A DNA stretch of 64,000 bases from an uncultured archaeon (lineage in GTDB: Archaea > Altiarchaeota > Altiarchaeia > IMC4 > SCGC-AAA252-I15), in the NCBI GenBank assembly GCA_902384455.1, contig CABMCB010000071.1, positions 139,315 through 203,314 of the forward strand. The letters run 5' to 3'. The notes beneath the pieces were generated by a model. It was not told the origin of the DNA. It saw only the letters and a program-made list of their open reading frames with translations, and ran no database searches. Positions 10,128 through 28,364 of this stretch are shown piece after piece. Made by a program: the position numbers and the translations under genes. Numbering within the stretch: the stretch's first letter is position 1; the number at the start of each line of letters is the position of its first letter.

Positions 10128-11669
10128 CTACTTCCTCAATATCCTATTGACTCCGTTAATGAACGCAAGCACACTCGCCATCACAATATCCTCATGAACA
10201 GCCCGAGCCATAGTACTCCTACCATTCTTACTAACCCTAATGGTGACGTCGGCTAAAGCGTTGCTTCCTCCGCTTATTGCGTCCAAGTGATACTCGTCAA
10301 GCTGGATGTCAGGGTCGCCTAAAGCCTTCCTAATCGCCTTCAAAGTGGCGTCCACAGGACCTACTCCGTCCTCAGTAGCCTTCTTCTCCTGCCCGTGAAC
10401 CATAAGCACGACCGAAGAAAGAGGCGCTTTGCCTAAACGCGCTGAAAGAGACAAGTCCCTAAGCTCAACCAATCGTCCTTCCCCGCTTCCGCTGCCTACA
10501 AGGTCTTCGGCTATGGCAATCAAGTCCTCTTCAGTCACCTTCTTGCCTTTATCTCCTAAGTCCTTCACCTTGCGGGTTATGGCATGAGCCTGCTCGTCGC
10601 TGACCGCAACGCCCAACTCCTTAAGCTTAGCGGCTACGCCAGCGGCGCCAACTAGTTTCCCCACAAGTATGCGGCGTTTAGCGCCAACCATCTCAGGGTC
10701 AATAGCTTCGTAAGTGGACGCCTTAGCCAGCACCCCGTGCACGTGGACTCCTGATTCGTGGGCGAAAGCGTTGCTTCCGACGACAGGGAAATTAGGCATA
10801 ACCCTAATCCCAGTCAGGCGCTGCACAATCTGGCTTACCTCAAAGATGCGCTTAGTGTTGACGTTGCTTTCCACTTTATGAATCAACTTCAACCCTAAAA
10901 CCACCTGCTCAAGGTCGGCGTTCCCCGCCCTCTCACCCAAGCCGTTGACGGTAACGTGCGGTATTTCAGCTCCAGCCATCACGCCTGAAATAGTGTTGGC
11001 TACCGCCATCCCGAAGTCGTTGTGGCAGTGCACCGCAAGAGGAATCTTAACCTCCTTCTTCAGCTCGCTAATCAGCCAGTACATCGCCTGCGGCGTCATC
11101 ACTCCCACAGTATCAGGTATGTTGATGTGGTCGGCTCCTGCCTCTTCCGCTGCCTTAACCACCTTCTTTAGGAAAGGAAGCTCAGTCCGGCACGCATCCT
11201 CAGGGCTAAAGTGAACGGAAACACCCCTCTCCTTAACGTAACGGATGCTCCTTACGGCATTAGCAAGAACATCATCCTCGCTCATCTTCAGCTTATACTT
11301 CCTGTGAATTGGGCTTGTGCCTATGAAAATGTGGACTAAATCGACGTCCGCGGCAAGCGCCGCATCCAAATCCTTCTCCACGCACCGGGCCAACCCACAC
11401 ACCTTAGCGGAAAAGCCAGCGCCAGCCATCCTCATAATGACCTCACGCTCACCGTCACTCGACACGGGAAACCCGCCCTCAATTATGTCGACTCCAAGCT
11501 CATTCAAGGCCTCCGCTATGCTAAACTTCTCGTCCAAAGTCAAGGCTACACCCGGCGTCTGCTCGCCGTCCCTCAAAGTAGTGTCAAACACCTTAACCCT
11601 CTTGGGCTTCCTCTCAAACTTCACCTGACTATCGTACCAAAACTGGTCGACTCCATCATTATCCATCAT
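10128..11669 (-). CDS. leuA: 2-isopropylmalate synthase / (R)-citramalate synthase family (LeuA/CimA)
   Basis: 513 aa with FDTTLRDGEQ TIM-barrel N-terminus, HxH motifs (VHCHNDFGMAVANT) and a C-terminal regulatory domain. Confidence 0.85.
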   Translation of the reverse strand: MMDNDGVDQFWYDSQVKFERKPKRVKVFDTTLRDGEQTPGVALTLDEKFSIAEALNELGVDIIEGGFPVSSDGEREVIMRMAGAGFSAKVCGLARCVEKDLDAALAADVDLVHIFIGTSPIHRKYKLKMSEDDVLANAVRSIRYVKERGVSVHFSPEDACRTELPFLKKVVKAAEEAGADHINIPDTVGVMTPQAMYWLISELKKEVKIPLAVHCHNDFGMAVANTISGVMAGAEIPHVTVNGLGERAGNADLEQVVLGLKLIHKVESNVNTKRIFEVSQIVQRLTGIRVMPNFPVVGSNAFAHESGVHVHGVLAKASTYEAIDPEMVGAKRRILVGKLVGAAGVAAKLKELGVAVSDEQAHAITRKVKDLGDKGKKVTEEDLIAIAEDLVGSGSGEGRLVELRDLSLSARLGKAPLSSVVLMVHGQEKKATEDGVGPVDATLKAIRKALGDPDIQLDEYHLDAISGGSNALADVTIRVSKNGRSTMARAVHEDIVMASVLAFINGVNRILRK

Positions 11670-11885
11670 CTCACACTCAAATGTTTTTCACGGCAAAAAA
11701 ACAAAAAAAGGGACAATTATCATCGTCCGACGGCGGAATACAGCGCCACACGGCTGCTGCTCCCGCTACATAAGCAACAGAAATAAGCTGCGGAAGACCG
11801 GCTGAAAACAACCCGCCGAACAAAAACCGCACGATTCCATACTAAAACCTACACCAAACAAACATAAAAACGCAGCAAAAACCCT

Positions 11886-12239
11886 TTACTCAACCGCAAC
11901 CGCGTTCACAAAACCATCCTGACCCGGACGACTAGTAACCCGCGCCTTAAACTCCTTACCACCATCCTTAACGACGATAACAGCGCCCTTAGTAATAATG
12001 TTCCTTCTGCTGAAGTCCTTGTTAGCAGGATTATCACTCACGGTCACAATACCACAAACAACATTCTTACCGCCAATAAGCACATTAGCAGAACCGGCAA
12101 CATCCAACTTAACCTTAAAGCCGCCGCCCTTAACCCTAACATGCTTCCTCTTAACCTCGCCCACCCCAGTCTCAGCAGGCTGCCGACCAACATTATACTT
12201 CCGCTTCTTCTCGGTCTTAGATACCTTACCGTGATACAT
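11886..12239 (-). CDS. rps8e: 30S ribosomal protein S8e
   Basis: 117 aa, MYHGKVSKTEKKRKYNVGRQPAETGVGE...; characteristic S8e sequence and length. Confidence 0.85.
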   Translation of the reverse strand: MYHGKVSKTEKKRKYNVGRQPAETGVGEVKRKHVRVKGGGFKVKLDVAGSANVLIGGKNVVCGIVTVSDNPANKDFSRRNIITKGAVIVVKDGGKEFKARVTSRPGQDGFVNAVAVE

Positions 12240-12328
12240 GATGCAAAAGATAGGAAGAACCCCTTAAAAAACAACAAACCAACCATATTTAACCCCCAAT
12301 CCCATACCTAAACACCAATTCAATCACG

Positions 12329-13102
12329 GTGGAAACCATGACAGAAAAAACACAATCACGCTGCCCAACCGGCATAACCGGCCTAGACAACATGCTAGGC
12401 GGCGGACTGCCAAGAGGAAGAACAATACTCGTCTCCGGAAGCTGCGGAACAGGAAAAACAACCTTAGCCCTCCAGTTCCTCATGGACGGTATATCAAAAT
12501 ACAACGAGCCCGGCATATACGTCACACTAGAACAAAGCGGAGACGAAATAAGAAAAGACGCACTCCAATTCGGCTGGGACCTACCCAAACTAGAAGCAGA
12601 ACGCAAACTACTCATAATAGACACATCACTTAGCAAAATAGGAATCAAAGACTTCATCACAACACTACCCATATCCCCAACCACAAGCTTCAGCTTACTA
12701 CCAGACGAATTCGACCTAAACAAAATAGTCGGACTAACCGTGGAAGCAGCCCGAAAATTAGGCGCAAGACGAATAGTAGTCGACAGCCTGCCGGCACTCG
12801 ACGTCCTGTTTAAGGAAACGCACGACATACGCAGGGCGCTGGTCAACCTCAACTACGAATTCAAGGCAAGCAACCTGACGACAATACTCATCGGTGAAAC
12901 AGAAGACGAAGACGGCGTGACCAAAATCCCCGTAGCCGACTACATCTCAGACGGTGTAATACTTTTGAAAAACAATGAAGCCCTCGACATGCGCACAATC
13001 CGGATACGCAAGATGCGCACTGCAAAACACACGCTAAAGCCGCAGACATACGAGATAACCCCCAAGGGCATAGAAATCAAGGAAGCTAAAAGCATACTAT
13101 AA
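12329..13102 (+). CDS. KaiC/RadA-like RecA-superfamily ATPase (single KaiC domain)
   Basis: 257 aa. Walker A GSCGTGKTT, Walker B hhhhD (RIVVDSL) and KaiC-like topology. Confidence 0.7.
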   Translation: METMTEKTQSRCPTGITGLDNMLGGGLPRGRTILVSGSCGTGKTTLALQFLMDGISKYNEPGIYVTLEQSGDEIRKDALQFGWDLPKLEAERKLLIIDTSLSKIGIKDFITTLPISPTTSFSLLPDEFDLNKIVGLTVEAARKLGARRIVVDSLPALDVLFKETHDIRRALVNLNYEFKASNLTTILIGETEDEDGVTKIPVADYISDGVILLKNNEALDMRTIRIRKMRTAKHTLKPQTYEITPKGIEIKEAKSIL

Positions 13103-13121
13103 GCCACCAGACGCGCAACCT

Positions 13122-13607
13122 ATGATTCTCCCCAAAAGATTCTTCGTGACCGTAGGACGCGGAACAAGCACCACTAGCGCACTTAACGCATTCGACAACG
13201 CCTTAGCCGCAGCCGGAATAGACCGCTGCAACCTCGTCCCAGTATCAAGCATCCTGCCGACAGACGCAATCCAGATTCCCCCAGTAAAAATCCCAGCAGG
13301 CACAATAACATTCTGCGTCCTATCACGCTACGACGGATTCGGAAAAGAAGGCGCAGCAGGAGTCGGATGGACACGCGGCGAAATCAAGAAAACAAGAGAC
13401 AGATTCGGGATGGTCGCCGAAGGCAGCGGAAAAACAACAAAAGACGTAGAATCAGAACTAAAAAATAAACTCCAGGAAATGGCGAAAAGCCGCAGCATGA
13501 CCCTACAAAAAGACATACAAACGGCAGTAACCCCAACCGGCAAAGTCCCTGAAAAAACATTCTGCAGCGCAATAGCTGCCGTAATATTCGTTCCAGAAGC
13601 AGACTAA
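13122..13607 (+). CDS. pdaD: Pyruvoyl-dependent arginine decarboxylase
   Basis: 161 aa. N-terminus resembles PdaD (..FFVTVGRG..CNLVPVSSILP..) with the Ser-Ser self-cleavage site context. Confidence 0.7.
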   Translation: MILPKRFFVTVGRGTSTTSALNAFDNALAAAGIDRCNLVPVSSILPTDAIQIPPVKIPAGTITFCVLSRYDGFGKEGAAGVGWTRGEIKKTRDRFGMVAEGSGKTTKDVESELKNKLQEMAKSRSMTLQKDIQTAVTPTGKVPEKTFCSAIAAVIFVPEAD

Positions 13608-13689
13608 ACCCCTTTTTAATTAACTCCTACCAACATATAACGTGGTGGGACTCGTGCGCCTTTCCAAAGAGGCCTAACCTTAACCCACG

Positions 13690-14304
13690 ATGCCCACAGA
13701 AAACGCAATTCTACCGATAATAAAAGCGGTTGCATTAATCGGAAGCTACGCCTTCCTAGGATTCGGCATAAAATACATAGACCAAGCATACGACGTCAAA
13801 ATATTCAACCGCACAATAGCCCGCGCACTAGCCGTAATATGCGGAATACTAATGGGCCTGCTCATAGCCCTAGACGAAACATCCGCAATGATACTTCTGG
13901 CCATAATCGTAGGCGTCGCAATAACCCGCAAAATAGACAACTACGCATTCTACGCCGGAGCAATACTAGCATTCATAACTCCAATATTCTTCGACGGAAT
14001 CAGAATACACTGGATGGGCCTGGCAGGCCTAATAATAGCAGGAACACTCGACGAAGAACTAAACAACTACGCAGACAAAAGAAAACTCCCCAAAATAATA
14101 TCCACCCTACTATACCTACGCCTCATAATGAAACTAACAATACTCGCCTACGCATTAGCCGGCCAGATAAACATAATATACTTCTTCGCATTCATAGCAT
14201 TCGACATAAGCTACATACTCGTCGACCAATACACCGCAATGATCCTAAAACGTAAACCGCCGTTTAGGAAAAAACTCGCAACAATAAACACCAACAACCT
14301 TTAA
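13690..14304 (+). CDS. Integral membrane protein, function unknown
   Basis: 204 aa, ~6 predicted TM helices, no diagnostic motif. Confidence 0.5.
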   Translation: MPTENAILPIIKAVALIGSYAFLGFGIKYIDQAYDVKIFNRTIARALAVICGILMGLLIALDETSAMILLAIIVGVAITRKIDNYAFYAGAILAFITPIFFDGIRIHWMGLAGLIIAGTLDEELNNYADKRKLPKIISTLLYLRLIMKLTILAYALAGQINIIYFFAFIAFDISYILVDQYTAMILKRKPPFRKKLATINTNNL

Positions 14305-14329
14305 TTAACCCCAACCCCATACGATAACC

Positions 14330-14728
14330 ATGGGGGAACCCACCGTAAACCGCAAAGACCAAATCACAAAAGTCCTCATCGAAGACCTGCAGCCACTCGA
14401 AGACATCTACTTCTGCTTCGTAGCAAGCAAAAACCTCGAAGGCATACTAGCCCCCATAAAAGAAGAACACAAAAACGAAATCCTACCCATATGGGAAGAC
14501 CTCAAAAACACAATGAACGAACTATTCGACGTAATCACACACTACAGTGAACACGGCCTAGATAAAATATACTTTGAACTAGGAAACTACGACGTACTCT
14601 TCTTCATACTGCCCGGAAGCAACACCGCATTAGGCGCAGTCATACCCGCACTCGCAAACAGAGGACTACTTGAAGTAGAACTGGAAAACGCCCGACGCGC
14701 CATAATCAAAATTCTAGAAGAAACATGA
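14330..14728 (+). CDS. Roadblock/LC7 (MglB-like) domain protein
   Basis: 132 aa with a pattern compatible with the Roadblock fold (...YFCFVASKNLEGILA... YDVLFFILPGSNTALGAVIPALANRGLL). Its stop overlaps the start of the next gene (ATGA). Confidence 0.55.
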   Translation: MGEPTVNRKDQITKVLIEDLQPLEDIYFCFVASKNLEGILAPIKEEHKNEILPIWEDLKNTMNELFDVITHYSEHGLDKIYFELGNYDVLFFILPGSNTALGAVIPALANRGLLEVELENARRAIIKILEET

Positions 14729-16050
14729 ACCCTGCTGAAATAGCACTAAAAAAAGAAATCATGGGCGCCACACCCACCCCCAAACCAGAATTCAAAGCCG
14801 CAGTAGGCTTAAGCCGCAAATGGGACGCCAGAGAAGCAGGACGAGAAGTAGCCAGAAACACCCTAGAACAACTAGGAAAAGACCCCCACTTCCTCCTACT
14901 CTTCTCAACAATACACTACGAAAAACACGGCGGATTCCAAGAACTACTCAACGGCGTATACGACATACTACCCAAAGAAACACCACTAATAGGCGGAACA
15001 GTCGCAGGATTCATAAACCAACAAGGATGCTACACACGAGGCGTCACAGCACTAGCAGCCAACTACCCAAACATGAACGTAGCAATAGGAATAGGACACA
15101 ACACACGTAAAAATCCGGCAAAAGCCGCCGAAGAATTATCCTCAAAAGTAAAAATATCAAATTCAAAAAATAATCTCCTTTTTTGTCTCATCCCCGGAGG
15201 GACCGTTCCAAGTTTTCCGGGTTTAGGACGAAAAAAAGTACTAAAATCTGGTTCAGTCGGAAATGCGGCAATAGGTTTGCTTGAACTTTCAATAGAACTT
15301 TCTCAATTAGGTCCTGGACGAGAAGATGAAGTAATCGAAGAATTAAGCAAAGATTTGGAGAATTATTATATTCTGGGAGGTAGTACAATGGACGATCTTA
15401 ATCAAAATCGTTCATACCAATTTTTTAATAAAGCAGTTAGCACAACAGACGTTGTGGGATTAAACCTATCCTCAGATTTACTAAATTATGAAATAATTAC
15501 CACAGATGGTTTGAAAAAAACCGGCAAAACCCTGCATATCACAAAAAAATCGTTAAGAAATTGTGTTATAGAGGAAATTGATAATAAACCTGCTACGACA
15601 GAATTTTTACGGAAAATTAACTGGCCCGAAGATTTTCTGAATGAAAGGCTATACACAAAAACTTTTTATTACCCTCTTGGAGAAACAGTTGAAGGAGTGC
15701 TAAGGCCTCAAATAATAGGGGCTTTTTTAGGGAATAATATTGCATGCGGATACAGCATAAAAACAAATGATTTAGATATCCTTTCCGCGTCTGGTCTGTC
15801 TTTAGTTGAATCAGCCAAAAACGCAATTCTACAAGCTAGCAAATACAAAATAAAAACATTAATTGGTGTTGTGTGTGCGACACAACTTGAAACATTAGGA
15901 CATAATATCTACCGGGTCTATAACGCAATATCTCCATTACTAGTAGACACCCCCTTTATTATCCTCTATTGCGCGGGTGAAGAAAGTTATTCGCCAAAAA
16001 GTCCTCCAAAACAACTTTATGACACGTTTAATATTGCCTCGATTAGCTAA
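14725..16050 (+). CDS. FIST-domain (FIST_N+FIST_C) putative sensor protein with an internal base-composition switch
   Basis: 441 aa. The N-terminal half (HFLLLFSTIHYE...PLIGGTVAGFI...) and C-terminal half (FYYPLGETVEGVLRPQIIGAFLG) fit FIST N/C. Composition changes abruptly near nt ~15110, from ~55% GC to ~35% GC. Confidence 0.55.
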   Translation: MNPAEIALKKEIMGATPTPKPEFKAAVGLSRKWDAREAGREVARNTLEQLGKDPHFLLLFSTIHYEKHGGFQELLNGVYDILPKETPLIGGTVAGFINQQGCYTRGVTALAANYPNMNVAIGIGHNTRKNPAKAAEELSSKVKISNSKNNLLFCLIPGGTVPSFPGLGRKKVLKSGSVGNAAIGLLELSIELSQLGPGREDEVIEELSKDLENYYILGGSTMDDLNQNRSYQFFNKAVSTTDVVGLNLSSDLLNYEIITTDGLKKTGKTLHITKKSLRNCVIEEIDNKPATTEFLRKINWPEDFLNERLYTKTFYYPLGETVEGVLRPQIIGAFLGNNIACGYSIKTNDLDILSASGLSLVESAKNAILQASKYKIKTLIGVVCATQLETLGHNIYRVYNAISPLLVDTPFIILYCAGEESYSPKSPPKQLYDTFNIASIS

Positions 16051-17177
16051 AGTGAACGGATTTTTTCAGCCCACTCACTTCTTACCGCCTTATCAACTTT
16101 TCTATCTGAAAATGCACGATAAAAATCATCCTTGATTTTTGTAGTACTCTCCAAATCTTCACCCAATTTCGCTCCTATATACCTCTTTTCTTCCCAACAT
16201 TTTCTGTACATTAGCAAATTTTTTTTCTTCCATTTTCCTTGTCTAATTGCGTTTATAGACGTCTCACCTGCAGCAATTCCTGATAGCATAGATGGGACAA
16301 TACCCTCACCTGTGATTGGCTCAACGATACCTGCAGAATCCCCAACTAAAATAATGCCGTTCCCAATCGTATTCCGTGCTGGCAGGGGTCCACACGTTGG
16401 GATACCACCCCCTCTAATCTCCTCTATGGTATACTCTCTTCCAATAATCTTATGTAACGGTAAATATTTTTGTATCAAAAATACTAATGCTTTTTTTAAA
16501 TTATTTCCCGGAGCTACTGCAACACCTATATTAGCAGTATTTTTCCCTTTTGGAAATACCCACCCATAACCTGATGGAAATTCCTCGCCAAAAAATACAT
16601 GCCAGTAGTTATTTTCTTTAATTTTTACTCCACTTACAAGTAACTCGTAAGCAACAGCGTATTCTCCCTGTTTCCACGGTTTTCTAATATTAGCCCATCT
16701 ACCAACGTTTGCTTCAAAACCATCTGCGCCAATAACTATTTTTGTAGAAATATCAAAATTTTTATTATCTCTCCCAACTTTTACTTTTATTCGATCTCCT
16801 CTAAATTCAAGTCCCTTCGCAGTAGCACCAGTATAAATGTTGGCGCCTTTTTCAGAAGCTATATCAGATAAATACTTATCAAAAATTTTTCTATCTAGAG
16901 TAAAACCTCGCCATTTCTCTCCGGAAAAAAAATATTCTTCGTTATAAAAATAAATTTTTGTACCATCTATCTCCTGATTAATAAAAGATTTTTCTGATGG
17001 TATTCCAGTATCTTGGAAGGCGTCCTTATTTATAGCTTCTGCGCATCTAACCGGACTTCCAATTTTCTCGTCTTTCTCAATATTAATTACGTCTAATCCC
17101 CCTTCAGCGGCAATTTTTGCAGACATTGACCCCGCCGGTCCTGCTCCTACTACTAGTACGTCGCATTCTTTTTTCAT
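16047..17177 (-). CDS. Geranylgeranyl reductase family FAD-dependent oxidoreductase
   Basis: 376 aa, VLVVGAGPAGSMSA dinucleotide-binding motif and GGR-family similarity throughout. Very AT-rich. Confidence 0.8.
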   Translation of the reverse strand: MKKECDVLVVGAGPAGSMSAKIAAEGGLDVINIEKDEKIGSPVRCAEAINKDAFQDTGIPSEKSFINQEIDGTKIYFYNEEYFFSGEKWRGFTLDRKIFDKYLSDIASEKGANIYTGATAKGLEFRGDRIKVKVGRDNKNFDISTKIVIGADGFEANVGRWANIRKPWKQGEYAVAYELLVSGVKIKENNYWHVFFGEEFPSGYGWVFPKGKNTANIGVAVAPGNNLKKALVFLIQKYLPLHKIIGREYTIEEIRGGGIPTCGPLPARNTIGNGIILVGDSAGIVEPITGEGIVPSMLSGIAAGETSINAIRQGKWKKKNLLMYRKCWEEKRYIGAKLGEDLESTTKIKDDFYRAFSDRKVDKAVRSEWAEKIRSL

Positions 17178-17180
17178 ATT

Positions 17181-18416
17181 TTATTTTTTTGTTATTTGTT
17201 TGTGTTTGTAGTCGAGGTATTCTAGTGTTTTTATTATTGTTTTGTTGATTGGGTTGTTCCATGTGAGTATTTCGTCTCTTAGTGTGTTGTAGTCTTGGTG
17301 TTGTAGTGTTCTGATTTTTTGTGGGGTTTGCAAGTCTGCGATTAGTAGTAGTAGCAGGAGGTATTTTTTTGGGTCGGTGTGGTCGAATAGTTGGTACATT
17401 AGTTTTCCGGTTTCTTCTGATTGTGTGAAGAATGATCCTATTGGAGATTTTTTTACGTTTTGTTCGTATGTTTCGAGTTCTTTTTTGTTTTTTATGTGTT
17501 CTACGGTTGTTTTTCCTGCTGTGTCGCCGCAGATTATTGCGGGTAGAATTCCTTCAACAAAGGGTTTGAGGTTTTGGTCTGCGGCGTCTCCTGTGAGGAT
17601 TACGTTGCCGTAAACCCACTTTTTGGCGATAGGCTGAGGGTTTACTTTGCCGCCTTTGTTTTCGATTTTGGTTGCGTTTTTGACTTGGTGTTTCATTTCC
17701 GGGATTTCAAGGAATTCTCGGAAGTAGTCTTCCATCGGTTTTTTGGGTTTAGCACACCCTACCCCTATGTTTGCTTTTGATTTACTTATAGGGAATACGT
17801 ATGCGTAGCCTGTGTCTGTGAAGTCGCCTACGTATACTTGCTCGAAGTTTGGTGACGCCAGGTTTACGTTGTGCATTTCCCAAGAGTAGACTTCAGCTAT
17901 GGTTCCCTCATGTTCGCGGTATTCCCCCAACAGGCGGAGTGTCGTCGAATCGTAGCCATCTGCACCAACGACGACTTTTGGTTCAATGTGGATTGTTTTT
18001 CCTTCGGAGTTTAAAGTGGCTTTTTTGACTGTGTTGTTATGCCCGACTTCGAAGTCAATCAGGTGCGTGTTCAGCATCAGTTTTGCCCCAGCGTTTGTTG
18101 CTTGTGCAGCCACCCACTTGTCAAAGTGTTTCCTGTTTACGGTGCATCCCTTCCAAAGTATTCCGGTACGCCGTACGATTATGTCTTCAGCCCAGAATTC
18201 TATTCCAGCAGTATCCCAAATGAGTTGTTCCTGCGGAATTTTGAAGGGAAGAAACGGGAAGAAGCATTGTCCTATCCCTTCTGCGCAGTGCACTGGCGTC
18301 CCCAGTTTCGTTCTTTTGTCTACAAAGATAGTTTTGAGTCCGGCCAGAGCGCATGCTCTAGCTGCGGAGGAGCCGGCTGGTCCTGCGCCAACGACAAGTA
18401 CGTCGCATTCCATCAA
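17181..18416 (-). CDS. Geranylgeranyl reductase family paralog with C-terminal extension
   Basis: 411 aa, VLVVGAGPAGSSAA motif, paralogous to the adjacent GGR. The coding strand is strongly A/C-biased. Confidence 0.8.
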   Translation of the reverse strand: MMECDVLVVGAGPAGSSAARACALAGLKTIFVDKRTKLGTPVHCAEGIGQCFFPFLPFKIPQEQLIWDTAGIEFWAEDIIVRRTGILWKGCTVNRKHFDKWVAAQATNAGAKLMLNTHLIDFEVGHNNTVKKATLNSEGKTIHIEPKVVVGADGYDSTTLRLLGEYREHEGTIAEVYSWEMHNVNLASPNFEQVYVGDFTDTGYAYVFPISKSKANIGVGCAKPKKPMEDYFREFLEIPEMKHQVKNATKIENKGGKVNPQPIAKKWVYGNVILTGDAADQNLKPFVEGILPAIICGDTAGKTTVEHIKNKKELETYEQNVKKSPIGSFFTQSEETGKLMYQLFDHTDPKKYLLLLLLIADLQTPQKIRTLQHQDYNTLRDEILTWNNPINKTIIKTLEYLDYKHKQITKK

Positions 18417-18456
18417 TACACATTAGGTATTTAACTAAAATAAAAAATCAATATAC

Positions 18457-19686
18457 GTGAGGCAATTCTTAAGCGGGGCATGGAGTACTCTCTTAGGCGA
18501 TCGTCAATTGCTTCTACTGTGCATCTCCCTCTTTATCTTCTACTTGGGTGGCGGAGCCGTTCTACTTTTGGTCCCAATTCTTGCGGAAAAAACCGTCGGC
18601 CGGGTTGAGTTTGTCGGTCTAATCATGGCGGTTCCGGCGTTCATTTCACTACTCCTGTCAATTCCTGTCGGGAGTTTATCGGATAGTTTAGGTAGAAAGA
18701 ACGTTCTTTTGGCCGGTTTTGCTTCTATGATACTGCCTGGTATATTCCTGTCTATCTCTAACGACGCCTTTCTTTTAGTGGTTGCTATGGCGTTTTTAGG
18801 TTTAGGTTATGCGTTAATCACTACTTCTTCGCGAGCTTTTGTCATGGACTTTGCTCCACGGGATGGCGCCTCAAAATACTTTAGTTTTATCAACACAGCA
18901 TCAAGTCTTGGTACAGCTATTGGACCCTTTCTAGGCGGAATCCTTTTGGTTGGCGGCTTACAGCAGGGTACCCTACTGATAGCATCTCTTTTTATATTTA
19001 CTTGCGCCTTTGCAGGGGTAGTATCTCTATCCCTAAGGGAGACCGTGAAAGAAACTACGTCTGTTTCTAAGGGCTTAAAGTTGCTTAGCAAGGACGGGTT
19101 TTACTTTAGAGGATTTGCAGAATACGGTAAACTAAAGTCTATAGGGGGCGTAGTTTTTGGTCTGACCTTTATGTTGACTTTCCTTGACCGAGCAGTCTGG
19201 ACTTTTGAGCCACTGTACTATAATGAAGGAATGAATTCGTACACGGTGGGTCTTATCCTATCCATGTTTATTATTCCCTATATCCTCTTTGAGATTCCGG
19301 GCGGCTTTCTCGCCGATAAATACGGGAAATTTAAGACATTATTTTTAGGTCTATTGGTGGCTGGATTCTCGTTGATATTGTTCGGCTCAACAAATAGTCC
19401 AACTGTTTTGGTTGCGGCGGCTTTTCTATCTACGACTGGTTTGGCCCTTGCGTGGCCGTCAATAAGCGGGTTGCTGTCGGATGAATCTGATTCGCATAAT
19501 AGGGGTCAAATTGTGGGTGTCTGGAATTCATCTGAAAATTTGGGTTTCACGTTGAGTCCTATACTCGGTGGTTTAATCGCGGGCTATTATCAAAGCATAA
19601 GTAAAGTGTTTACTTTAGTGGGCGTTCTGTTTCTTTTTGCGTGTATTGCGGTTGTTTTGTTCAAGAGGTCAAATAAAATTGTTTAA
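18457..19686 (+). CDS. MFS transporter
   Basis: 409 aa, 12 TM topology, MFS signature-like loop (SDSLGRKN). Confidence 0.75.
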   Translation: MRQFLSGAWSTLLGDRQLLLLCISLFIFYLGGGAVLLLVPILAEKTVGRVEFVGLIMAVPAFISLLLSIPVGSLSDSLGRKNVLLAGFASMILPGIFLSISNDAFLLVVAMAFLGLGYALITTSSRAFVMDFAPRDGASKYFSFINTASSLGTAIGPFLGGILLVGGLQQGTLLIASLFIFTCAFAGVVSLSLRETVKETTSVSKGLKLLSKDGFYFRGFAEYGKLKSIGGVVFGLTFMLTFLDRAVWTFEPLYYNEGMNSYTVGLILSMFIIPYILFEIPGGFLADKYGKFKTLFLGLLVAGFSLILFGSTNSPTVLVAAAFLSTTGLALAWPSISGLLSDESDSHNRGQIVGVWNSSENLGFTLSPILGGLIAGYYQSISKVFTLVGVLFLFACIAVVLFKRSNKIV

Positions 19687-19713
19687 TAACGTAGAGGCAA
19701 AACTCATTATATC

Positions 19714-20952
19714 GTGAGATTACTCGGTCTACAGGGTGTTCGGTCGGCAGTTCCTAAACCCCTTCTACTGGTTAGTCTTGCGGCTTTTTTCTATACTTTG
19801 GGTAACGGCGCTGTCTGGTTTGTTTTGCCGATTAAGGCAGAAGCTTTACTGAAAAACCTCATGTTAGTCGGCCTTATTGTTGCAGTCCCTAATGCAGTCT
19901 CTCTTATCTTCGATGCGTCTATCGGGGGGTATTCTGATAGGGTGGGGCGCAAGAAACTGTTTTTTGTAGGTCTTCTTGTTATGGTTTTTTTGGGTCTTCT
20001 TCTTCCGTCCATCTATTCGTTGCCGGCATTCATACTTTTCATGGTCGTGTTTGGCCTTGCTAACCAGTTAATTTTCATTTCTGGCAGGGCTTATTTGATG
20101 GATATTGCTCCTGCTGGCAAGACGTCTAGTTATTTTGGTGTTCAAGAAGCTGCCGCTCAAATTGGGTTTGCCATAGGGCCCGTAGTCGCCGGAGTCATAG
20201 TTGCAGATTCGTTGTCCATCGGAATCCAAAACACCGGTTTACTCTATGCCGCATTGTGTCTGGTGGCTCTGTTTTGCGTATTCCTACTGAAAGAAACAGT
20301 GAAAACCAACGAATCCCCATTAATCGCAGTAAAGAACCTTATCGAAAAAGACAAAATTCTCCTACGCAGCATACTAGACTTCAAACAACTTAAGTCAGCG
20401 GGCTTGTTAATTCTGGTGACGACTTTCGTAATAACCTCCGCAGACGGCCTAATTTGGGCTCTTGAGCCGCTCTACGCTAACCGAGGCGTTGATTCCGCGG
20501 CAGTGGGTGTGATTCTTTTCATGTTCGTCCTACCCTACATATTATTTAACGTGCCGTTAGGGCATTTTGCAGACAAGCACGGGAAAAAGAAACTAATAGT
20601 TCTCGGGCTCTTCCTCTCCGGCGTCTTCCTAATCCTCTTCGGCTACTCTGGAAGCGAGTTGACTATGATAGCAACCGCATTCATAGCCACAACAGGACTC
20701 GCCTGCATACGCCCTTCACTCGGCGGATTGCTCACTGATCTAGCCCAAAACAAACAAAAAGGCGGAGTAGTAGGCATATGGGACGCTGCAGAAGACCTAG
20801 GGTACATAATAGGTCCTCTTACTGGTGGAATAATAGCTGAATTCTATAAGGACATATCCATCCCATTCGTCTTTCTCGGCATCATAATGCTCGCTCTAGG
20901 GGTCGTGACGTTAATTCTGCCGGCAATAAAAAGCAACACGTCAGTAGCCTAG
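19714..20952 (+). CDS. MFS transporter (tandem paralog)
   Basis: 412 aa, 12 TM, motif YSDRVGRKK between TM2/3; paralogous to 18457-19686. Confidence 0.75.
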   Translation: MRLLGLQGVRSAVPKPLLLVSLAAFFYTLGNGAVWFVLPIKAEALLKNLMLVGLIVAVPNAVSLIFDASIGGYSDRVGRKKLFFVGLLVMVFLGLLLPSIYSLPAFILFMVVFGLANQLIFISGRAYLMDIAPAGKTSSYFGVQEAAAQIGFAIGPVVAGVIVADSLSIGIQNTGLLYAALCLVALFCVFLLKETVKTNESPLIAVKNLIEKDKILLRSILDFKQLKSAGLLILVTTFVITSADGLIWALEPLYANRGVDSAAVGVILFMFVLPYILFNVPLGHFADKHGKKKLIVLGLFLSGVFLILFGYSGSELTMIATAFIATTGLACIRPSLGGLLTDLAQNKQKGGVVGIWDAAEDLGYIIGPLTGGIIAEFYKDISIPFVFLGIIMLALGVVTLILPAIKSNTSVA

Positions 20953-22212
20953 TGTCCGCTGTTTGGCTAGAAAAACGCAGTCGTCGTTTCCTGAGGCTAA
21001 GCAGTCTTTTTCAGTGACTTCCCAACGGGTTTTACTGCCCTCGTTGATTACGCCCTCTATTATGCCGGCCAGAAAGACGCAGAGTTTCAGGTCGATGTTG
21101 TTGACGCCTGAGGCATAGACGCTTTCGTCCATATGGATTAAAATGCGTTCAGGACTTCTCTCTTCAACTTTTGAAATGATTCCTGCCTTAAGATAAGTGA
21201 ACAAGTTGCGCAAGTAATCCAGGCGTTCTTTTATGCTAAGTTCAATCAAGTCCGCTTCTTTAGCGATTCGTTTACCCGTAATAACCCCTGCGTGTTTGGA
21301 TAGTACGTAGTGGCCGGGTGATGGAGAGCTCAGCATATAATTCAAGCACTGGTCTGCCGAAATATGGAAATACTCCTTATGGTTTAGGCGGTTCTCTTCA
21401 TTGGTGATTATCCTCTCCAGTACATTATCCAAAATTGGGGAATACTCATCGGATTCCATAGTGGGGAGTTCACTGTCGACGTTTTTCTCTGACAGATGCA
21501 AGTTAAACTTACATGTCTTGTTTCCGCTATGCTGGCATTCTGTTTCGTTTCCACACCAGAAGCCGCTGAACATTACTTCGGCAGAACCACATAATGTGCC
21601 TAATTCTACGTCACATAGTGGTCTGTTTGAGTGGACTATAGGCGTTATATACTTCACGGAATATTGAACGGTCCTGTTTTTTCTGTCGACTTTTGTTAAG
21701 TGGATGTCGCCGTATCCTTGACTCCTCCATATACCACAGTACGTGTCTTGTATCCTCTTGTTCTCGAATACAGTCCAAAAAATGCCAGAGTTACGTAGTG
21801 ATTGAATAGCAGGTTCCAAATTCGTGGTTTTAAATGCTATTTCACTTGAGAAGTAACCCATCAATTTACCTATCTTATACAACTCCGTCGTCATATGCGG
21901 GCAAATGAACAACGTAGAGAACCTCCGTATTTCCATCAAATAAGGGTGCGCGGTGTTACCTAGTGTTCGCCTTATATGTATCTCTTCATTGGCGGGCAAA
22001 CCAAAATCGCGTACAGCTTTAAAATTTTCGTATATGATTTTTCCTCCGTGTTCTTTTTCCCATAGGTAGTTTAGTTTGATTGGTGGGTATATTCCGTCTG
22101 AGCTGAGTTTGTTTCCGCATTGTGGGCAGTAGATGTAGTTTGGGTCTGGAATTTTGAATTCGCAGAGTTTGCAGTTGGCGTTTGCTTTAAGTTTGGTTTT
22201 AACGGCAGCCAT
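20941..22212 (-). CDS. Zinc-ribbon plus V4R-domain protein (hypothetical)
   Basis: 423 aa. N-terminal CKLCEF...CPQCGNKL zinc ribbon. The C-terminal ~70 aa resemble the V4R (4-vinyl reductase-like) small-molecule-binding domain (LKLCVFLAGIIEGVINE...). Confidence 0.5.
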   Translation of the reverse strand: MAAVKTKLKANANCKLCEFKIPDPNYIYCPQCGNKLSSDGIYPPIKLNYLWEKEHGGKIIYENFKAVRDFGLPANEEIHIRRTLGNTAHPYLMEIRRFSTLFICPHMTTELYKIGKLMGYFSSEIAFKTTNLEPAIQSLRNSGIFWTVFENKRIQDTYCGIWRSQGYGDIHLTKVDRKNRTVQYSVKYITPIVHSNRPLCDVELGTLCGSAEVMFSGFWCGNETECQHSGNKTCKFNLHLSEKNVDSELPTMESDEYSPILDNVLERIITNEENRLNHKEYFHISADQCLNYMLSSPSPGHYVLSKHAGVITGKRIAKEADLIELSIKERLDYLRNLFTYLKAGIISKVEERSPERILIHMDESVYASGVNNIDLKLCVFLAGIIEGVINEGSKTRWEVTEKDCLASGNDDCVFLAKQRTLGY

Positions 22213-22402
22213 AAGTCAAAAATGTCCAATTATGTGCTCAACCATTCAATTTTGGAATTTATATGCGTATTCCCGCCTGCATGTTTATAGTACCTTCGAT
22301 TTATCCAGATGGACTAGTATTACTTGGCTGCAGTTGTTTCGTTCATGCTTTAATTTAAGTCTCGTTCAATTAGTCAATTGGGGTTTTTGGCCTGTCTTTA
22401 AA

Positions 22403-23932
22403 ATGAGTAAGTTTGTTTTTGTTGTTTTGGTTTTCCTGCTTTTTGTGGCAGGTTGTTTGAGTAATACGGAAACTTCGACGTCGAGTACTGTGTTTGGTGA
22501 GGTATCTTCAACGGTGCCTTCTGTTTCGTCGACTGTAGTGATTGAGCAGTCGTCTACGTCTATTTTTGTTCAGACTACTACGACGGTTACGGTGCCGGTT
22601 GAGGCGGTGTTTCAGCTTAGGACTTATGGGGGGTTTATTAATCCGGCGCGCGCTAACAGGGAGTTGATTGTTAATTCGTCGACAGTTGTTTATCGCGTAT
22701 TAAGTGCGGACGGCGTCCTGCAGGAAGAATACTTGAAAGCAGTCGACTTGGCCGTATATAATCGTCTGCTTACGTTGTTTTCGACTTCTGGTTTTGAATC
22801 AATGAAGGACGCTTACAGGCGGCAGGGCTCCAACGTCCCTGATGTGGGTACAACTGAAATAAGTTATATCCAAGACGGAAGGACAAAGACTGTCAAGTCC
22901 GGTCCTTTCCTCTCAAATGACACTGAACCGCAAGGGTTCATGGATTTGGCTGAAGCCCTAACCAGTTTGATGCCGGCTGAAACAGTAGTAGTCCCATCTG
23001 TAACCCTCAGTTACCAGCCTATGCAGTGTGTGGATACGCCGTGGGATGCGTGGTATGCTGAAGGGAAAATCCAGTTCATAAAGGAGCCGACGGACAAGCA
23101 GCTTGCAACCGCCTACTACGCCAACCAATACAACTTAACTCTCCTGGATTTCACCAGAAACGAAACAGGCCAAATAACGTGTATGGCGTGCGGAGTTTGC
23201 CCTACATCTTATTATTTTGAGGCTACGGTAAGCGGAGGCGACGAAGCCGTATTGCTTGCGTTAAACTGGACGAAGCATTTAGGTGCGGGAGAGTCAGCTG
23301 AAACGCCGTCAGTAGAGAAGCCGGAGGACTATAATCCTGCGGTAAATCCCAAAAATTTCTTGCCTAAAGTCACCGCGCAATTGTATCCGATGCCTCCCGG
23401 AAGAACCCTAGTATACACTGGGACTTCTTTCGGACTTCAAATCCGCAAGGAAATTTCGGCAACAAACAACACAAAAACCATTTTAGGAGTAACTACGACG
23501 GAAGTTGTAACCCGCACATTCGTCTACAACACGACCGTAGCCGACGAAGTATTCCGGTACATCGCTCAGGATACGCAAAACAATGTGTGGTTGTTTGGCG
23601 AAGAGGTTAAGCAAGGAGGAAAATCGTCTTGGACTGCGGGGGTGGATGGCGCCAAACCTGGGTTAATAATACGCGGAAACCCGCGAGTAGGGCACTTCTG
23701 GCGGCAAGCCTACCTGAAAAACGTGATTGAAGACGTAACCGAAGTATTAAGCATAAACGAATACGTGAGCGTCCCGGGCGGAAGCTACCACAAATGCGTT
23801 AAAACGCAGGAGTGGACGCCGCTGCAGCAGGACGTAAATCACTTCAACTACTACTGCCCAGGCGCAGGACCGGCATTACTGCAGACAAACCAAGGCCAAG
23901 AATACCTTAAACTAAAAGAAATCATAAGGTGA
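22403..23932 (+). CDS. Secreted lipoprotein, hypothetical
   Basis: Start is chosen at the internal ATG (MSKFVFVVLVFLLFVAGCLSN) because the longer ORF overlaps the upstream convergent gene. Ser/Thr-rich linker, then a ~450-aa domain with no known motif. Confidence 0.55.
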   Translation: MSKFVFVVLVFLLFVAGCLSNTETSTSSTVFGEVSSTVPSVSSTVVIEQSSTSIFVQTTTTVTVPVEAVFQLRTYGGFINPARANRELIVNSSTVVYRVLSADGVLQEEYLKAVDLAVYNRLLTLFSTSGFESMKDAYRRQGSNVPDVGTTEISYIQDGRTKTVKSGPFLSNDTEPQGFMDLAEALTSLMPAETVVVPSVTLSYQPMQCVDTPWDAWYAEGKIQFIKEPTDKQLATAYYANQYNLTLLDFTRNETGQITCMACGVCPTSYYFEATVSGGDEAVLLALNWTKHLGAGESAETPSVEKPEDYNPAVNPKNFLPKVTAQLYPMPPGRTLVYTGTSFGLQIRKEISATNNTKTILGVTTTEVVTRTFVYNTTVADEVFRYIAQDTQNNVWLFGEEVKQGGKSSWTAGVDGAKPGLIIRGNPRVGHFWRQAYLKNVIEDVTEVLSINEYVSVPGGSYHKCVKTQEWTPLQQDVNHFNYYCPGAGPALLQTNQGQEYLKLKEIIR

Positions 23933-23951
23933 GTGTCCAGGTAAGTTGTTC

Positions 23952-25685
23952 TTAGGCTATCAGTCTGAGCGAAAGCAGGTTCCAGCCTCCATAAAGTAGG
24001 TGGACAAGACTTTCTTGGCAACTGTAAGTGCAGCCTGATGTCCCTGAGTCATTCCATCCGTCAGGCAAACTGCACCTGTTACCGTCTCCTGAAGAAGCGC
24101 CCCAGTCGCTGGAATAAAAGTCTGAGTTAATATTTCCACAAGCTGTGTTTCCATTAAAAACAACATCCGAACCGCTAGCACTAATTCCCCTAAAGCCGTT
24201 CGAGTTCACAGTGTTGTTAACAACCGACACGCCATCAGAATTCAACACATAAATGCCCTGATCCCCGTCGTTCACGGTATTCCCAACAACCAGGCCATCA
24301 GGAGACGACGTTAAATAAACTCCCATGTTCGAAGTAGCACTGACGTTGTTTTGCTCAACAGTATTGTTGCTGGAAAGATACTCATATACCCCCCACCAGC
24401 CAAAATGGACTAAATTGTAGCTCAAATTGTTGTAGTTAGACTGCGTCAAAGAAATCCCCGCACGAGTGTTTGACACCAAAGTACCATTAAGAACCCGATT
24501 ACGCACAGAACTTCCAAAATAAAAACCATCATTATCATTCCCGTTAGCCGTCGGCCTCAAAAAGACGTTGTCTGCGCAGTAATCAAGGTTAAACCCGTGA
24601 TAGTGGCTTGAAGACGTTACGTCCGTGATGTTAGCGCGGTTTGTGTTCAGCATCAAAACGCCGTTATTTTTTATTCCGCTCACGTTAGCGAGAGTAACGT
24701 TTCTGACTACGGCGTCGTCCGCCTGACAAAGAATAAGCTCCGAAACAACCTCATCGCTAACGGTCTCGGCTGAATTCACGAAACGAATCGGGAGGCCCCC
24801 TGTTCCAGTGTTTCCTGTGACTACGCTGTTGCATGTAGTTCCTATAGTGCCGCCTAAATCGTACCTCCCGTTGTATAACATGGTGTTGTCGCTTATGATG
24901 GTGGGCGCATCCCAAAGGTAGACTCCATCCCACAAGTTAGAATTAAAAATGCTGCCTTCAACCCGGTTGTTGTTGGAACGTAAAAAGTAAATTCCGTAGT
25001 AATTGTCGGACGAGTTCACGTCGGTGAAATTTGAGTCATCAGTAACAAACACATCAATTCCATTATTATCTAAACTACTGGACCCTACGACAGTCACATT
25101 CACCACGCTGGAATTATCTGCAGCACACAAAACAAGCTGCGACGCCACTGCATTAGCCAAACTAAACGAAGAATTATAGACTAATATAGGCCTCCCTTCC
25201 GGCCCCATATTATTCTCCATTACGAACATGCACTGTTCCTTGCCGTCTGCCCATACCCTCAAGTCATACCGATTATTCTCTACTAGAGTGTTGTTTCTTA
25301 CAATAAAACCTCTGGGGAAATACAAATTAAGTCCGTTCCAGAAATTGGTCACTTCGCAGTTCTGTATGGTAACATTCTCTTTCGCGTATGCGTATACTCC
25401 ATGGTATTGGCCGCTGCCGTTTATCCAATGGTTCATGCAATCGAAAACTTTGTTGTTGAAATTATCCGGGTTATTAATGCACGAACTGGTGGGGCTTGAA
25501 ACGTCAGAACTCAACCTGACCGTTGTGCAGTTCTCATTATCATTTAAGGCGCTGTTGCAGTCCGAGCAGTTTCCGCAGTCGCACACGCCTCCTCCGATGA
25601 CGTCGTACGCGGAAACTCCCGCAGAAAAGCACGCAAACACAATCAATCCAAGAATTATCGCAAAACGCATGTCCACGAAAAACAT
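23952..25685 (-). CDS. Secreted right-handed parallel beta-helix repeat protein (NosD/PbH1-like)
   Basis: 577 aa with signal peptide. Numerous ~22-aa repeats with N/G/V-rich beta-helix rungs (..NNTLVENNRYDL.., ..GNTVNDGDQGIYV..). Confidence 0.7.
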   Translation of the reverse strand: MFFVDMRFAIILGLIVFACFSAGVSAYDVIGGGVCDCGNCSDCNSALNDNENCTTVRLSSDVSSPTSSCINNPDNFNNKVFDCMNHWINGSGQYHGVYAYAKENVTIQNCEVTNFWNGLNLYFPRGFIVRNNTLVENNRYDLRVWADGKEQCMFVMENNMGPEGRPILVYNSSFSLANAVASQLVLCAADNSSVVNVTVVGSSSLDNNGIDVFVTDDSNFTDVNSSDNYYGIYFLRSNNNRVEGSIFNSNLWDGVYLWDAPTIISDNTMLYNGRYDLGGTIGTTCNSVVTGNTGTGGLPIRFVNSAETVSDEVVSELILCQADDAVVRNVTLANVSGIKNNGVLMLNTNRANITDVTSSSHYHGFNLDYCADNVFLRPTANGNDNDGFYFGSSVRNRVLNGTLVSNTRAGISLTQSNYNNLSYNLVHFGWWGVYEYLSSNNTVEQNNVSATSNMGVYLTSSPDGLVVGNTVNDGDQGIYVLNSDGVSVVNNTVNSNGFRGISASGSDVVFNGNTACGNINSDFYSSDWGASSGDGNRCSLPDGWNDSGTSGCTYSCQESLVHLLYGGWNLLSLRLIA

Positions 25686-25719
25686 TGAACACTAAGCATA
25701 AAAACTGCCGAAATACTTT

Positions 25720-27650: not shown

Positions 27651-28364
27651 TTAACTTGTTTCTTCTTTTAGTTTTTTTCTTTTATCTATCCTTTCCTTAA
27701 AGTCGTTTAACTTACTTGGAGCGACATATACATATTCAACTATTGCTCTGAAAAACTCGTCAATAGCTATAGTATCATATGGTTTTACCTCTCCTGCTAA
27801 GTCATGCGCTCCAGCATTTCCGAGGTTTCTCAATACTTCAGTCATCTCAGATAGTACCGGCGGTATTTCTCCATTAGACGCTAATTTTTTTAATCGTTGT
27901 TGTAAAGTGCCTTTTCTTATTCCTCTGTCCGTACATATCGCTTCAAGAGTACGTCTAATCTGAACAGCAAATGCGTTTGGAGCTAACTCTCGTATTCTTG
28001 CTGCTTCTTCATAGAGGTTTGAAACTCTTTTCGGAACAGAATTATGAAGTTGCCCCAACCTTGTTGGGTATACTAAATCATATCCCGAAAAATCTATATA
28101 CCCTGAGGGATCTACTTCATTGCTAGGTCCATATTCAGTTTCATCCTTCCCATATAATAAGACTTCATGGCAAATTTCACAAACTGCGACATAAAATGTA
28201 TATAGCGATTCCACCTCTGCTTTTTCTCCGCTAGTCCAATATCCACCTTCAAGAATGCTATGATGCGTATACACTAACTTTTGTTGCGTTAGATTCCCGC
28301 AATGATGACATAATGCAACATTACGAACCTCTACGTCCTTTTTCTGTACTTTTTGCCTCTTCAT
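27651..28364 (-). CDS. Zinc-ribbon protein with C-terminal DUF4145 domain
   Basis: 237 aa. N-terminal CHHCG...CEICH zinc ribbon. C-terminus matches the DUF4145 pattern (IRRTLEAICTDRGI...LQQRLKKLASNGEIPPVLSEMTEVLRNLGNAGAH). The gene is markedly AT-rich relative to its flanks. Confidence 0.6.
   Translation of the reverse strand: MKRQKVQKKDVEVRNVALCHHCGNLTQQKLVYTHHSILEGGYWTSGEKAEVESLYTFYVAVCEICHEVLLYGKDETEYGPSNEVDPSGYIDFSGYDLVYPTRLGQLHNSVPKRVSNLYEEAARIRELAPNAFAVQIRRTLEAICTDRGIRKGTLQQRLKKLASNGEIPPVLSEMTEVLRNLGNAGAHDLAGEVKPYDTIAIDEFFRAIVEYVYVAPSKLNDFKERIDKRKKLKEETS

Follow-up and report, generated by a model that had tools for sequence, protein, structure and literature searches.

A composition step inside an archaeal FIST gene marks the edge of an AT-rich island that is probably an exchangeable cassette

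Introduction

In the Rhs and CdiA-CT systems, which vary by C-terminal displacement, a constant 5' part of the gene is followed by a motif at the switch and a variable 3' part, and GC content drops in the middle of the gene. An adjacent gene co-varies with the 3' part, and it is at the conserved part that recombination brings in new variants. The O-antigen and capsule loci of enterobacteria are low in GC and hold many diverged types at one site, with recombination in the flanks, and the reasons why they stay AT-richer than the genome are debated. The mosaic pbp genes of pneumococci arise by interspecies homologous recombination from donors that are close (5-20% divergence) and identifiable. 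Here, we analysed 64,000 nucleotides (nt) of DNA from an uncultured archaeon (contig CABMCB010000071.1, positions 139,315 to 203,314; hereafter the window), in which base composition changes in the middle of a gene for a FIST-domain protein (VVB53677.1, labelled 'uncultured archaeon', from a metagenome-derived record with a 248-kb contig). The change opens an AT-rich island that consists of the 3' part of the FIST gene and a convergent gene of the geranylgeranyl-reductase (GGR) family, GGR1. We consider it probable that this island is an exchangeable cassette, which arrived by recombinational exchange at a conserved hotspot, between the 5' part of FIST and a second GGR paralogue, GGR2.

The locus can be compared with each of these systems. 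As in Rhs and contact-dependent inhibition (CDI) loci, FIST has a conserved N-terminal part (N-part), the motif YPNM.VAIG.G.NT.KNP stands at the switch, and the type of the C-terminal part (C-part) co-varies with the adjacent gene, which is GGR1 or a B12/radical-SAM (rSAM) gene. Unlike Rhs and CDI loci, the FIST locus has no toxin or immunity domains; the neighbour is a flavin adenine dinucleotide (FAD)-dependent GGR-family reductase; the variable parts, instead of being unrelated domains, are all homologous FIST sequence (23-60% identical); the partner gene encodes a lipid or isoprenoid enzyme and is convergent in loci of the type named B below; no orphan-cassette array was seen; and the hosts are archaea. 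The resemblance is one of architecture only, and the locus is not a member of the Rhs/CDI group. With the O-antigen and capsule loci it shares diverged types at one site, conserved flanks, persistent AT-richness and products that act on the cell envelope. It differs from them in that the left flank lies inside a gene, in that the cassette has 1-3 genes and not 10-20, and in that the cassette product probably serves membrane-lipid tailoring under a cytoplasmic sensor, with no surface-antigen role known. Like the pbp mosaics, FIST is an intact, collinear open reading frame (ORF) with blocks of sharply different similarity and crossovers in the best-conserved stretches, but the protein sequences of its alternative blocks are 40-65% different, with no known donor. 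Among FIST-domain sensors (PF08495/PF10442; NosP; eukaryotic FBXO22), the protein shares the FIST N domain (Pfam, 2.5e-24) and an FBXO22-like fold; unlike NosP, it scores 56 bits against an equivalog cut-off of 450 and has no output domain. To our knowledge, a FIST organisation with a constant head and a variable body has not been described before, and a search of the literature found no such description.

Results

GC content is 0.508 over positions 1-15159 of the window, 0.366 over 15160-17177, 0.451 over 17178-25700 and 0.509 over 25701-64000. Windows of 200 nt have values of 0.46-0.485 at 14.6-15.1 kb and then 0.32-0.39 up to ~17.5 kb. The initial annotation of this DNA had described a drop from ~55% GC within ORF 14725-16050, and a tract that stays low to ~25.7 kb. 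The step lies inside this ORF, where it had been placed, and windowed GC confirms it, but it is smaller than described (~47% to ~36%). The DNA upstream of it, at 12.0-15.16 kb, is slightly low too (0.466). A mild shoulder does reach 25.7 kb, but the sharply AT-rich island is only 2.0 kb long and comprises FIST codons ~146-441 and the whole of GGR1. GC content at third codon positions (GC3) is 0.257 in FIST codons 146-441 and 0.255 in GGR1, with z = -5.5 relative to the 39 other genes of the window (mean 0.566, standard deviation (SD) 0.057). There are 24 forty-codon windows with GC3 < 0.35 in the contig, 16 of which are contiguous at 15145-17117. Like a genomic island, the segment is thus atypical in composition, and it has variable content at one site between conserved flanks, as described below. 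The 64 kb gave no tRNA gene and no gene for Orc1/Cdc6, an integrase or a transposase (integrases and transposases being sought among the Pfam matches). The only feature found in place of such hallmarks of mobility is a 41-nt stretch at the 5' end of GGR1 (17128-17168), which is 83% identical to the 5' end of GGR2.

Codon choice is the clearest signal of the step, and the third-position spectrum is more telling than GC. In FIST codons 1-138, the frequencies of A, C, G and T at third positions (A3, C3, G3 and T3) are 0.56, 0.38, 0.04 and 0.03. In the remaining FIST codons they are 0.41, 0.15, 0.10 and 0.34, and in GGR1 they are 0.38, 0.09, 0.17 and 0.36; this spectrum is that of orthologues in archaea of 30-35% GC, for example the FIST gene of a low-GC locus, L001 (0.40, 0.10, 0.13 and 0.37). 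The four genes 5' of FIST, which encode a KaiC-like ATPase (T3 0.03), a protein like pyruvoyl-dependent arginine decarboxylase (A3+C3 = 0.87), a membrane protein and a protein of 132 amino acids (aa), have nearly all codons ending in A or C, as has the 5' part of FIST. This A/C-ending usage is referred to here as the native regime. A maximum-likelihood change-point of GC3 falls after FIST codon 118 (0.44 to 0.25, permutation p ~0.014). That of the G/T-ending fraction (G/T3) falls after codon 145 (0.06 to 0.45, likelihood ratio (LR) 80.5, p < 0.0005), with a support interval of nt 15105-15168, and codon usage thus bears out the step. The AT-rich regime stops near the start of GGR1, at 17.12-17.18 kb. 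T3 is 0/18 in GGR1 codons 1-18 and 0.38 after them (p = 0.002), which is a weak edge with G3 of 5/18, and the tail of GGR2 (codons 269-411) is nearly pure A/C-ending again (G/T3 0.06). Protein conservation as a driver of GC3 was ruled out, since the strongly conserved FIST stretch aa 281-360, inside the island, has GC3 of 0.17-0.30 and is AT-rich nonetheless. The FYMINK/GARP amino-acid composition was only weakly informative as a test of donor GC.

About 170 related loci, numbered L001 onwards, were collected. Their common layout is the gene for the 132-aa protein, FIST, a variable partner gene and an orthologue of GGR2. The N-part of FIST (~aa 20-139) is 56-93% identical family-wide, and the C-part occurs in deeply diverged types. 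A type-B C-part is always next to GGR1. Orthologues of GGR1 (47-53%), in turn, occur exclusively next to type-B FIST genes, and the best of the other GGRs stay below 40%. Type-A loci are next to an rSAM gene or directly next to GGR2. In relatives, the site between the FIST 5' part and GGR2 holds type B with GGR1, type A with rSAM (with or without a V4R gene) or type A alone.

The conserved flanks and the island of the window have different relatives. The 5' part of FIST is closest to L095 and L094 (82-86% aa identity). Nucleotide identity to L016, L094 and L095 is ~85% up to ~nt 15140 and then collapses, and exact matches of 20-36 nt to relatives lie at 14908-14945, in the left flank. As in a mosaic gene, the abrupt change in nucleotide similarity falls within an intact, collinear frame; the 441-aa ORF aligns over its full length with homologues, and the collinearity claimed in the initial annotation stands. 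The C-parts of the contigs that share this flank (L094, L095, L097 and L103) are 35-41% identical to that of the window and have a different partner gene. The best matches of the window C-part (55-61%) are all type-B loci, and those of GGR1 reach 47-53%. GGR2 is 60-65% identical to the FIST-adjacent GGR of L094, L097, L103 and L130, and in a neighbour-joining (NJ) tree it groups with these four at 100% bootstrap, though the cassettes differ. In the low-GC clade of the same tree, type-A and type-B loci are intermingled. Within the lineage with A/C-ending codons, N-part identity is 73-91% in aa and ~80% in nt (lower, 56-72%, for L140 and L031). For the C-part it is 23-55%, with most values at 33-46%. 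N-part and C-part diverge jointly in ordinary type-B pairs (79/75, 77/75 and 76/67). Each C-part is nearest (~60%) to another low-GC group bearing the same partner gene, and the flanks are nearest within the lineage: the C-parts of the window and L016 go to type B with GGR1 and that of L107 to L033 (61%). L094 and L121 are 62% identical in the C-part and 64% in rSAM, but 47-48% in GGR2, while L094 and L097 are 45-48% identical in the C-part and 41% in rSAM, but 68% in GGR2. Homologues of the downstream V4R and MFS genes (36-40%) flank the GGR2 orthologue in L094 too.

The junction recurs in other genomes. T3 switches from 0.00-0.10 to 0.32-0.41 at the boundary of N-part and C-part in all nine contigs of the A/C-ending lineage, namely the window, L016, L094, L095, L099, L107, L103, L140 and L031, which come from an NCBI metagenome-assembled genome (MAG), Logan assemblies and Joint Genome Institute (JGI) metagenomes. 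GC3 has a change-point at query aa 118-130 in the window, L016 and L031. In the distant genomes L067, L069 and L058 it drops at a comparable place, query aa 87-121; L067 derives from a 785-kb contig of 55-64% GC. The mid-GC relatives L093, L046 and L075 have no step.

A clean crossover at the same motif is seen in another pair of loci. L008 (positions 10001-10640) and L133 (3568-4207), two low-GC contigs from different sources, have ~85% DNA identity over 250 nt, then 92 of 93 identical positions (78 of them consecutive), after which identity collapses. It is lost right after ...GAAAATACAAGAAAAAATCCAAAA, coding ...NTRKNPK. This breakpoint corresponds to aa ~131-133 of the window protein (nt ~15115-15125), within the change-point interval of the window. 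L008 is of type B and L133 of type A; they are 93% identical in the N-part, 70% in GGR2 and 35% in the C-part. Such a pattern is left by a recent crossover, or by gene conversion that ends at the hotspot. Recombination at the conserved motif thus takes place within the family, and the step of the window is at the same hotspot.

Type-A and type-B FIST genes also occur together in some genomes, in tandem in L009 (8452-11251; also in L010 and L011) and on two contigs of one MAG (L012 and L083), and intragenomic exchange between paralogues is therefore possible. L095 has, ~1 kb upstream of its full FIST gene (3860-5386, head match 4097-4414), a 16-aa fragment of the FIST head (3046-3093) with 94% identity to aa 20-35. 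A HEPN/nucleotidyltransferase pair (3099-3819) lies between them and AbiE genes further upstream, and the fragment resembles a scar left by an insertion into the FIST 5' end. A scan of viral contigs found no relative or carrier of the cassette, and an exact-sequence look-up of the window FIST protein in the contig index gave no match.

Some further readings of the junctions were tried and rejected. Low GC at 17.2-17.6 kb might have placed a junction in the tail of GGR2, but this tail is nearest to L094 (47%; type-B loci ~30%) and its regime is native and A-rich. The polarity of strand bias switches at 15-17 kb, as it might at a replication origin; no Orc1/Cdc6 gene and no intergenic AT-rich region were found, and the strand-bias blocks are gene- or segment-specific. 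An ORF in the +2 frame (14820-15110) that ends at the GC drop was considered as an overlapping gene. Its frame is open only in genomes of high GC3 and is interrupted by 5-10 stops in low-GC relatives, which makes it a by-product of composition. A canonical -1 slippery heptamer, A_AAA_AAT, is present in frame in the junction interval, at 15165-15171 (within 15165-15173, codons 147-149), with TAA directly after it in the -1 frame. A programmed -1 frameshift, giving the head as a separate abundant product, was discarded because the heptamer is not conserved in L016, L094 and L095; it is probably due to chance in an A-rich stretch.

Synonymous sites vary along the whole window. Over positions 1-64000, it is a patchwork of blocks of 0.3-3 kb in which synonymous sites are almost purely A/C or G/T per strand. 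The blocks cross gene borders freely, and local GC and AT skews reach +/-0.5. Tracts almost purely G/T or A/C on one strand can be read in the raw sequence (e.g. 17180-17560, 61200-61436, 38368-43716 and 22400-22700). A significant intragenic change-point between A/C and G/T was found in ~30 of the 40 genes tested, for example from 0.69 to 0.31 at nt 41295 (LR 255) and from 0.35 to 0.98 at nt 61301. Over forty-codon windows, the G/T fraction has an SD of 0.216 contig-wide, against a binomial expectation of 0.078. Within the island its SD is ~0.09, and the island and a DUF4145-domain gene are the parts that lack the block pattern. That AT-richness is the default of DNA without strand bias was considered and rejected: unbiased windows mostly have GC3 ~0.55, and the strength of the bias correlates with GC3 at -0.08. 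The block pattern is strong in L099, L067, L016, L031 and L095, whereas most low-GC relatives show it only weakly. Tandem paralogues of a MacB/FtsX-type permease (29467-30681 and 30683-31900, both on the minus strand) have opposite regimes, 0.57 G/T-ending and 0.79 A/C-ending, and the GGR1/GGR2 and MFS1/MFS2 pairs show similar contrasts. If general in the lineage, the block pattern bears on the evolution of synonymous sites and could affect binning and gene calling.

The AlphaFold2 model of the FIST protein has a mean predicted local distance difference test (pLDDT) score of 91.6 and a predicted template-modelling (pTM) score of 0.90. Its best matches in the Protein Data Bank (PDB) are the FIST domains of FBXO22, followed by Toblerone-fold cyclic amide hydrolases. 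The Toblerone fold consists of three concatenated subdomains. In the model, the junction comes after strand 117-124 and helix 131-142, and it might coincide with the border of the first unit with the second.

The features of the locus are listed in Table 1. GGR1 scores 206.1 bits against TIGR02032, over the curated cut-off of 158.8, and GGR2 scores 153.5, just under it; neither reaches a DGGGPL-reductase equivalog cut-off in NCBIfam. The KaiC-like ATPase is 58-59% identical to the product of the syntenic gene in L016, where the membrane protein gene also adjoins FIST. The KaiC-like and 132-aa genes accompany FIST in Altiarchaeota-like contigs (window 12329-14728, L016 5418-7290, L093 360-1541). 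No Pfam, NCBIfam or PDB-sequence relative of the 132-aa protein was found, and its tblastn matches (38-68% identity) lie directly upstream of FIST in most of ~90 loci. All named best matches of the prolyl-tRNA synthetase (ProRS) are from Candidatus Altiarchaeota/Altiarchaeales, none above 67% identity, so the host belongs to a deep, poorly sampled lineage of Altiarchaeota.

Table 1 Features of the FIST locus in the window.
Feature	Position	Strand	Remarks
KaiC-like ATPase gene	12329..13102	+	First of a conserved rightward gene row; NCBIfam KaiC-type matches
Pyruvoyl-dependent arginine decarboxylase-like gene	13122..13607	+	TIGR00286 at 1e-23, under the curated cut-off
Membrane protein gene	13690..14304	+	39-42% identity to L016 6637-7290; T3 0.03
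132-aa protein gene, no known family	14330..14728	+	Adjoins the 5' end of FIST in almost every related locus
Left anchor, FIST codons 1-145	14725..15159	+	Family-wide conservation; native A/C-ending codons
Left junction (putative recombination hotspot)	15105..15168		Just 3' of the segment coding YPNM(N/D)VAIGIG.NTRKNP
Candidate cassette, part 1: FIST codons ~146-441 (type-B 3' part)	15160..16050	+	AT-rich; synonymous sites without strand bias
Candidate cassette, part 2: GGR1 (GGR-family paralogue)	16047..17177	-	Convergent with FIST; 4-nt overlap at the stop codons
Right junction, approximate	17124..17181		5' end of GGR1 (coding the FAD motif) and stop codon of GGR2
Right anchor, GGR2 (GGR-family paralogue)	17181..18416	-	Native-type composition
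Mild low-GC shoulder	18457..25685		MFS1, MFS2, zinc-ribbon/V4R, DUF6438-like lipoprotein, NosD/beta-helix (Pfam); outside the candidate cassette

Three observations concern other parts of the window. The listed start of the lipoprotein ORF, a TTG at 22154, makes it overlap the V4R gene by ~60 nt and adds ~80 residues before the signal-peptide-like 'MSKFVFVVLVFLLFVAGC'; the true start is probably near 22400. The DUF4145-domain gene (27651-28364, minus strand) is a second AT-rich island (GC3 0.26, z = -5.4), with an unbiased A/T-ending spectrum like that of the cassette, between native-type genes for ProRS and an AI-2E transporter. ORF 55209-56060 (plus strand; no Pfam match) has a GC3 of 0.39 with two windows below 0.35, and is possibly a third foreign-like segment.

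Discussion

We propose that the island is a cassette (~15.16-17.18 kb), made of the 3' two-thirds of FIST and the convergent GGR1, which would lie between a left anchor, the initial ~435 nt of FIST, and a right anchor, GGR2, both of them conserved. The archaea-wide form of the locus would then be a constant head (the 132-aa gene and the FIST 5' part), a variable FIST 3' part with its partner (GGR1, B12/radical-SAM or none) and GGR2, and homologous recombination would swap the cassettes. The left crossover would lie in the stretch of nucleotides that is best conserved family-wide, which codes for YPNM(D/N)VAIG.G.NT(R/K)KNP; a crossover in such a stretch gives a mid-gene change of composition with a collinear protein. 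A deep Altiarchaeota host with an A/C-ending regime would carry a type-B cassette whose synonymous sites are like those of ~34%-GC archaea, and the history of the cassette would thus differ from that of its flanks. We infer that the window cassette arrived by exchange and not by inheritance in place, and that its source was AT-rich; the direction and age of the exchange are likewise deduced.

The initial annotation had read the composition change as a replacement of the 3' half of FIST together with a downstream block from a low-GC relative. Of this reading, the mosaic gene and the recombination junction hold, but the replaced unit ends at ~17.18 kb and is not 10.5 kb long. Import of 15.1-25.7 kb as a single 10.5-kb block is very improbable. 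The six genes from GGR2 to the beta-helix gene are indeed lower in GC3 than the rest (0.43-0.52; mean 0.483 vs 0.566, Mann-Whitney p = 0.00045), but GC is two-tiered (0.366 vs 0.451) and equally mildly low upstream, at 12-15.16 kb, GGR2 is native A/C-ending and forms a 100% clade with the lineage's own GGR2 genes, and the GGR2, V4R and MFS genes are likewise neighbours in L094. The chimeric assembly that had been offered as the alternative, in which the reads of a low-GC organism would be joined to the contig within the conserved FIST segment, is if anything even harder to credit. The record is metagenome-derived and the junction adjoins a conserved segment, but the same switch is present in eight other contigs from different studies and assemblers. 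The native sequence is back after 2 kb, with both the frame and the conserved order of genes kept, so a chimera would need two precise joins. The longest exact match of the region 14.7-17.7 kb to low-GC loci is 21 nt, with none at the junction, and the full-length protein yields a confident AlphaFold2 model. The recurrence in other contigs and the return to native sequence at GGR2 exclude a chimera, as far as sequence alone allows.

A stronger competitor, which we regard as possible although not as the likely one, is a regime kept in place. The type-B FIST 3' part and GGR1 would have been inherited vertically within Altiarchaeota and would be persistently AT-rich, and the shuffling in the family would not be the cause of this step. 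Hypervariable segments of many types might escape the forces that maintain a high GC3 in conserved segments, for example selection on synonymous sites, or GC-biased gene conversion, which needs recombination of similar alleles. Several results that favour this explanation weigh against an exchange in the window. The C-part has a lower GC3 than the genomic background in 31 of 33 loci with a background GC3 of at least 0.38, and the contrast is found in all nine contigs of the lineage. A one-off event is thus not supported; imports repeated recently in every lineage, as these loci would imply, are not parsimonious, and persistent AT-richness is a live alternative to recent import. The window and L016 are both of type B and both AT-rich at a mutual identity of 55%, which means either two acquisitions or an AT-richness that outlasts synonymous saturation. 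In the NJ tree, the low-GC type-B clade excludes the window, L092 and L093 (100%; 88% with L016 added), so that the window cassette is not nested in the sampled low-GC clade and no donor lineage was found there; the C-part branches with the mid-GC loci L016, L092 and L093, as could be expected if type B had been inherited vertically within Altiarchaeota. At codon positions 1 and 2, the cassette has a GC of 0.41-0.43, above that of low-GC orthologues (z ~2.5-2.9) and similar to that of mid-GC orthologues. A donor search in 5.8 billion proteins gave at best 61% for the FIST C-part and 53% for GGR1, which is similar to the distance of any sequenced relative from the host (ProRS best 67%). With no closer donor, and with the C-part outside the low-GC type-B clade, a demonstrable recent import from a low-GC relative is not borne out. 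The two halves of FIST, compared separately, do differ in their nearest neighbours (L095/L094 and type-B loci, respectively), but the N-part clade is supported by only 57%, and a strong conflict is seen only when the cassette is set against GGR2 (100% bootstrap). Gene conversion of the anchors among paralogous loci would produce such a pattern too. Nor does a mid-gene boundary prove anything by itself, because intragenic switches of synonymous regime are the rule in this contig.

Other results speak against a regime kept in place and for exchange. No mechanism is known that would set a boundary within ~20 codons inside one mRNA, and the conserved aa 281-360 are as AT-rich as the remaining cassette. 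With GC3 of ~0.55 in most unbiased windows, AT-richness is not the default state of the contig. The mid-GC loci L093, L046 and L075 have no step, and the discordance of anchors and cassette, together with the L008/L133 crossover, shows exchange at the exact site. Recombinational exchange of the cassette is, on balance, the reading that we favour.

A wider interpretation is speculative, and we would give it slightly less credence than inheritance in place. The conserved 5' segment of FIST may be a family-wide recombination hotspot of a modular archaeal signalling system, combined in this host lineage with an undescribed regime of A/C-G/T blocks. The constant head of such a system would be the KaiC-like ATPase, the 132-aa protein and the first FIST subdomain, and cassette exchange across phyla would re-couple it to sensing bodies that can replace one another and to lipid-tailoring enzymes, either GGR paralogues or B12-radical-SAM enzymes. 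The regime of 0.3-3 kb A/C or G/T blocks would make foreign or young DNA conspicuous.

With mapped edges, conserved anchors and a crossover motif, a step in GC content becomes a defined object that can be searched for in other genomes. It also calls for caution in the curation of MAGs, as mid-gene composition steps can be biological and reproducible. The gene of a cytoplasmic sensor would be modular at the DNA level, its 3' body being exchanged along with an enzyme gene. According to reviews, GGR and B12-radical-SAM enzymes both tailor archaeal isoprenoid lipids. The partner enzymes being of these classes, a constant signalling head coupled to an interchangeable ligand-sensing part and to interchangeable lipid-tailoring enzymes is suggested. 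The body of FIST may be paired with GGR1 or the radical-SAM enzyme, and its head with the 132-aa protein and the KaiC-like ATPase. The locus may in this way offer a handle on how archaea vary the tailoring of their membrane lipids.

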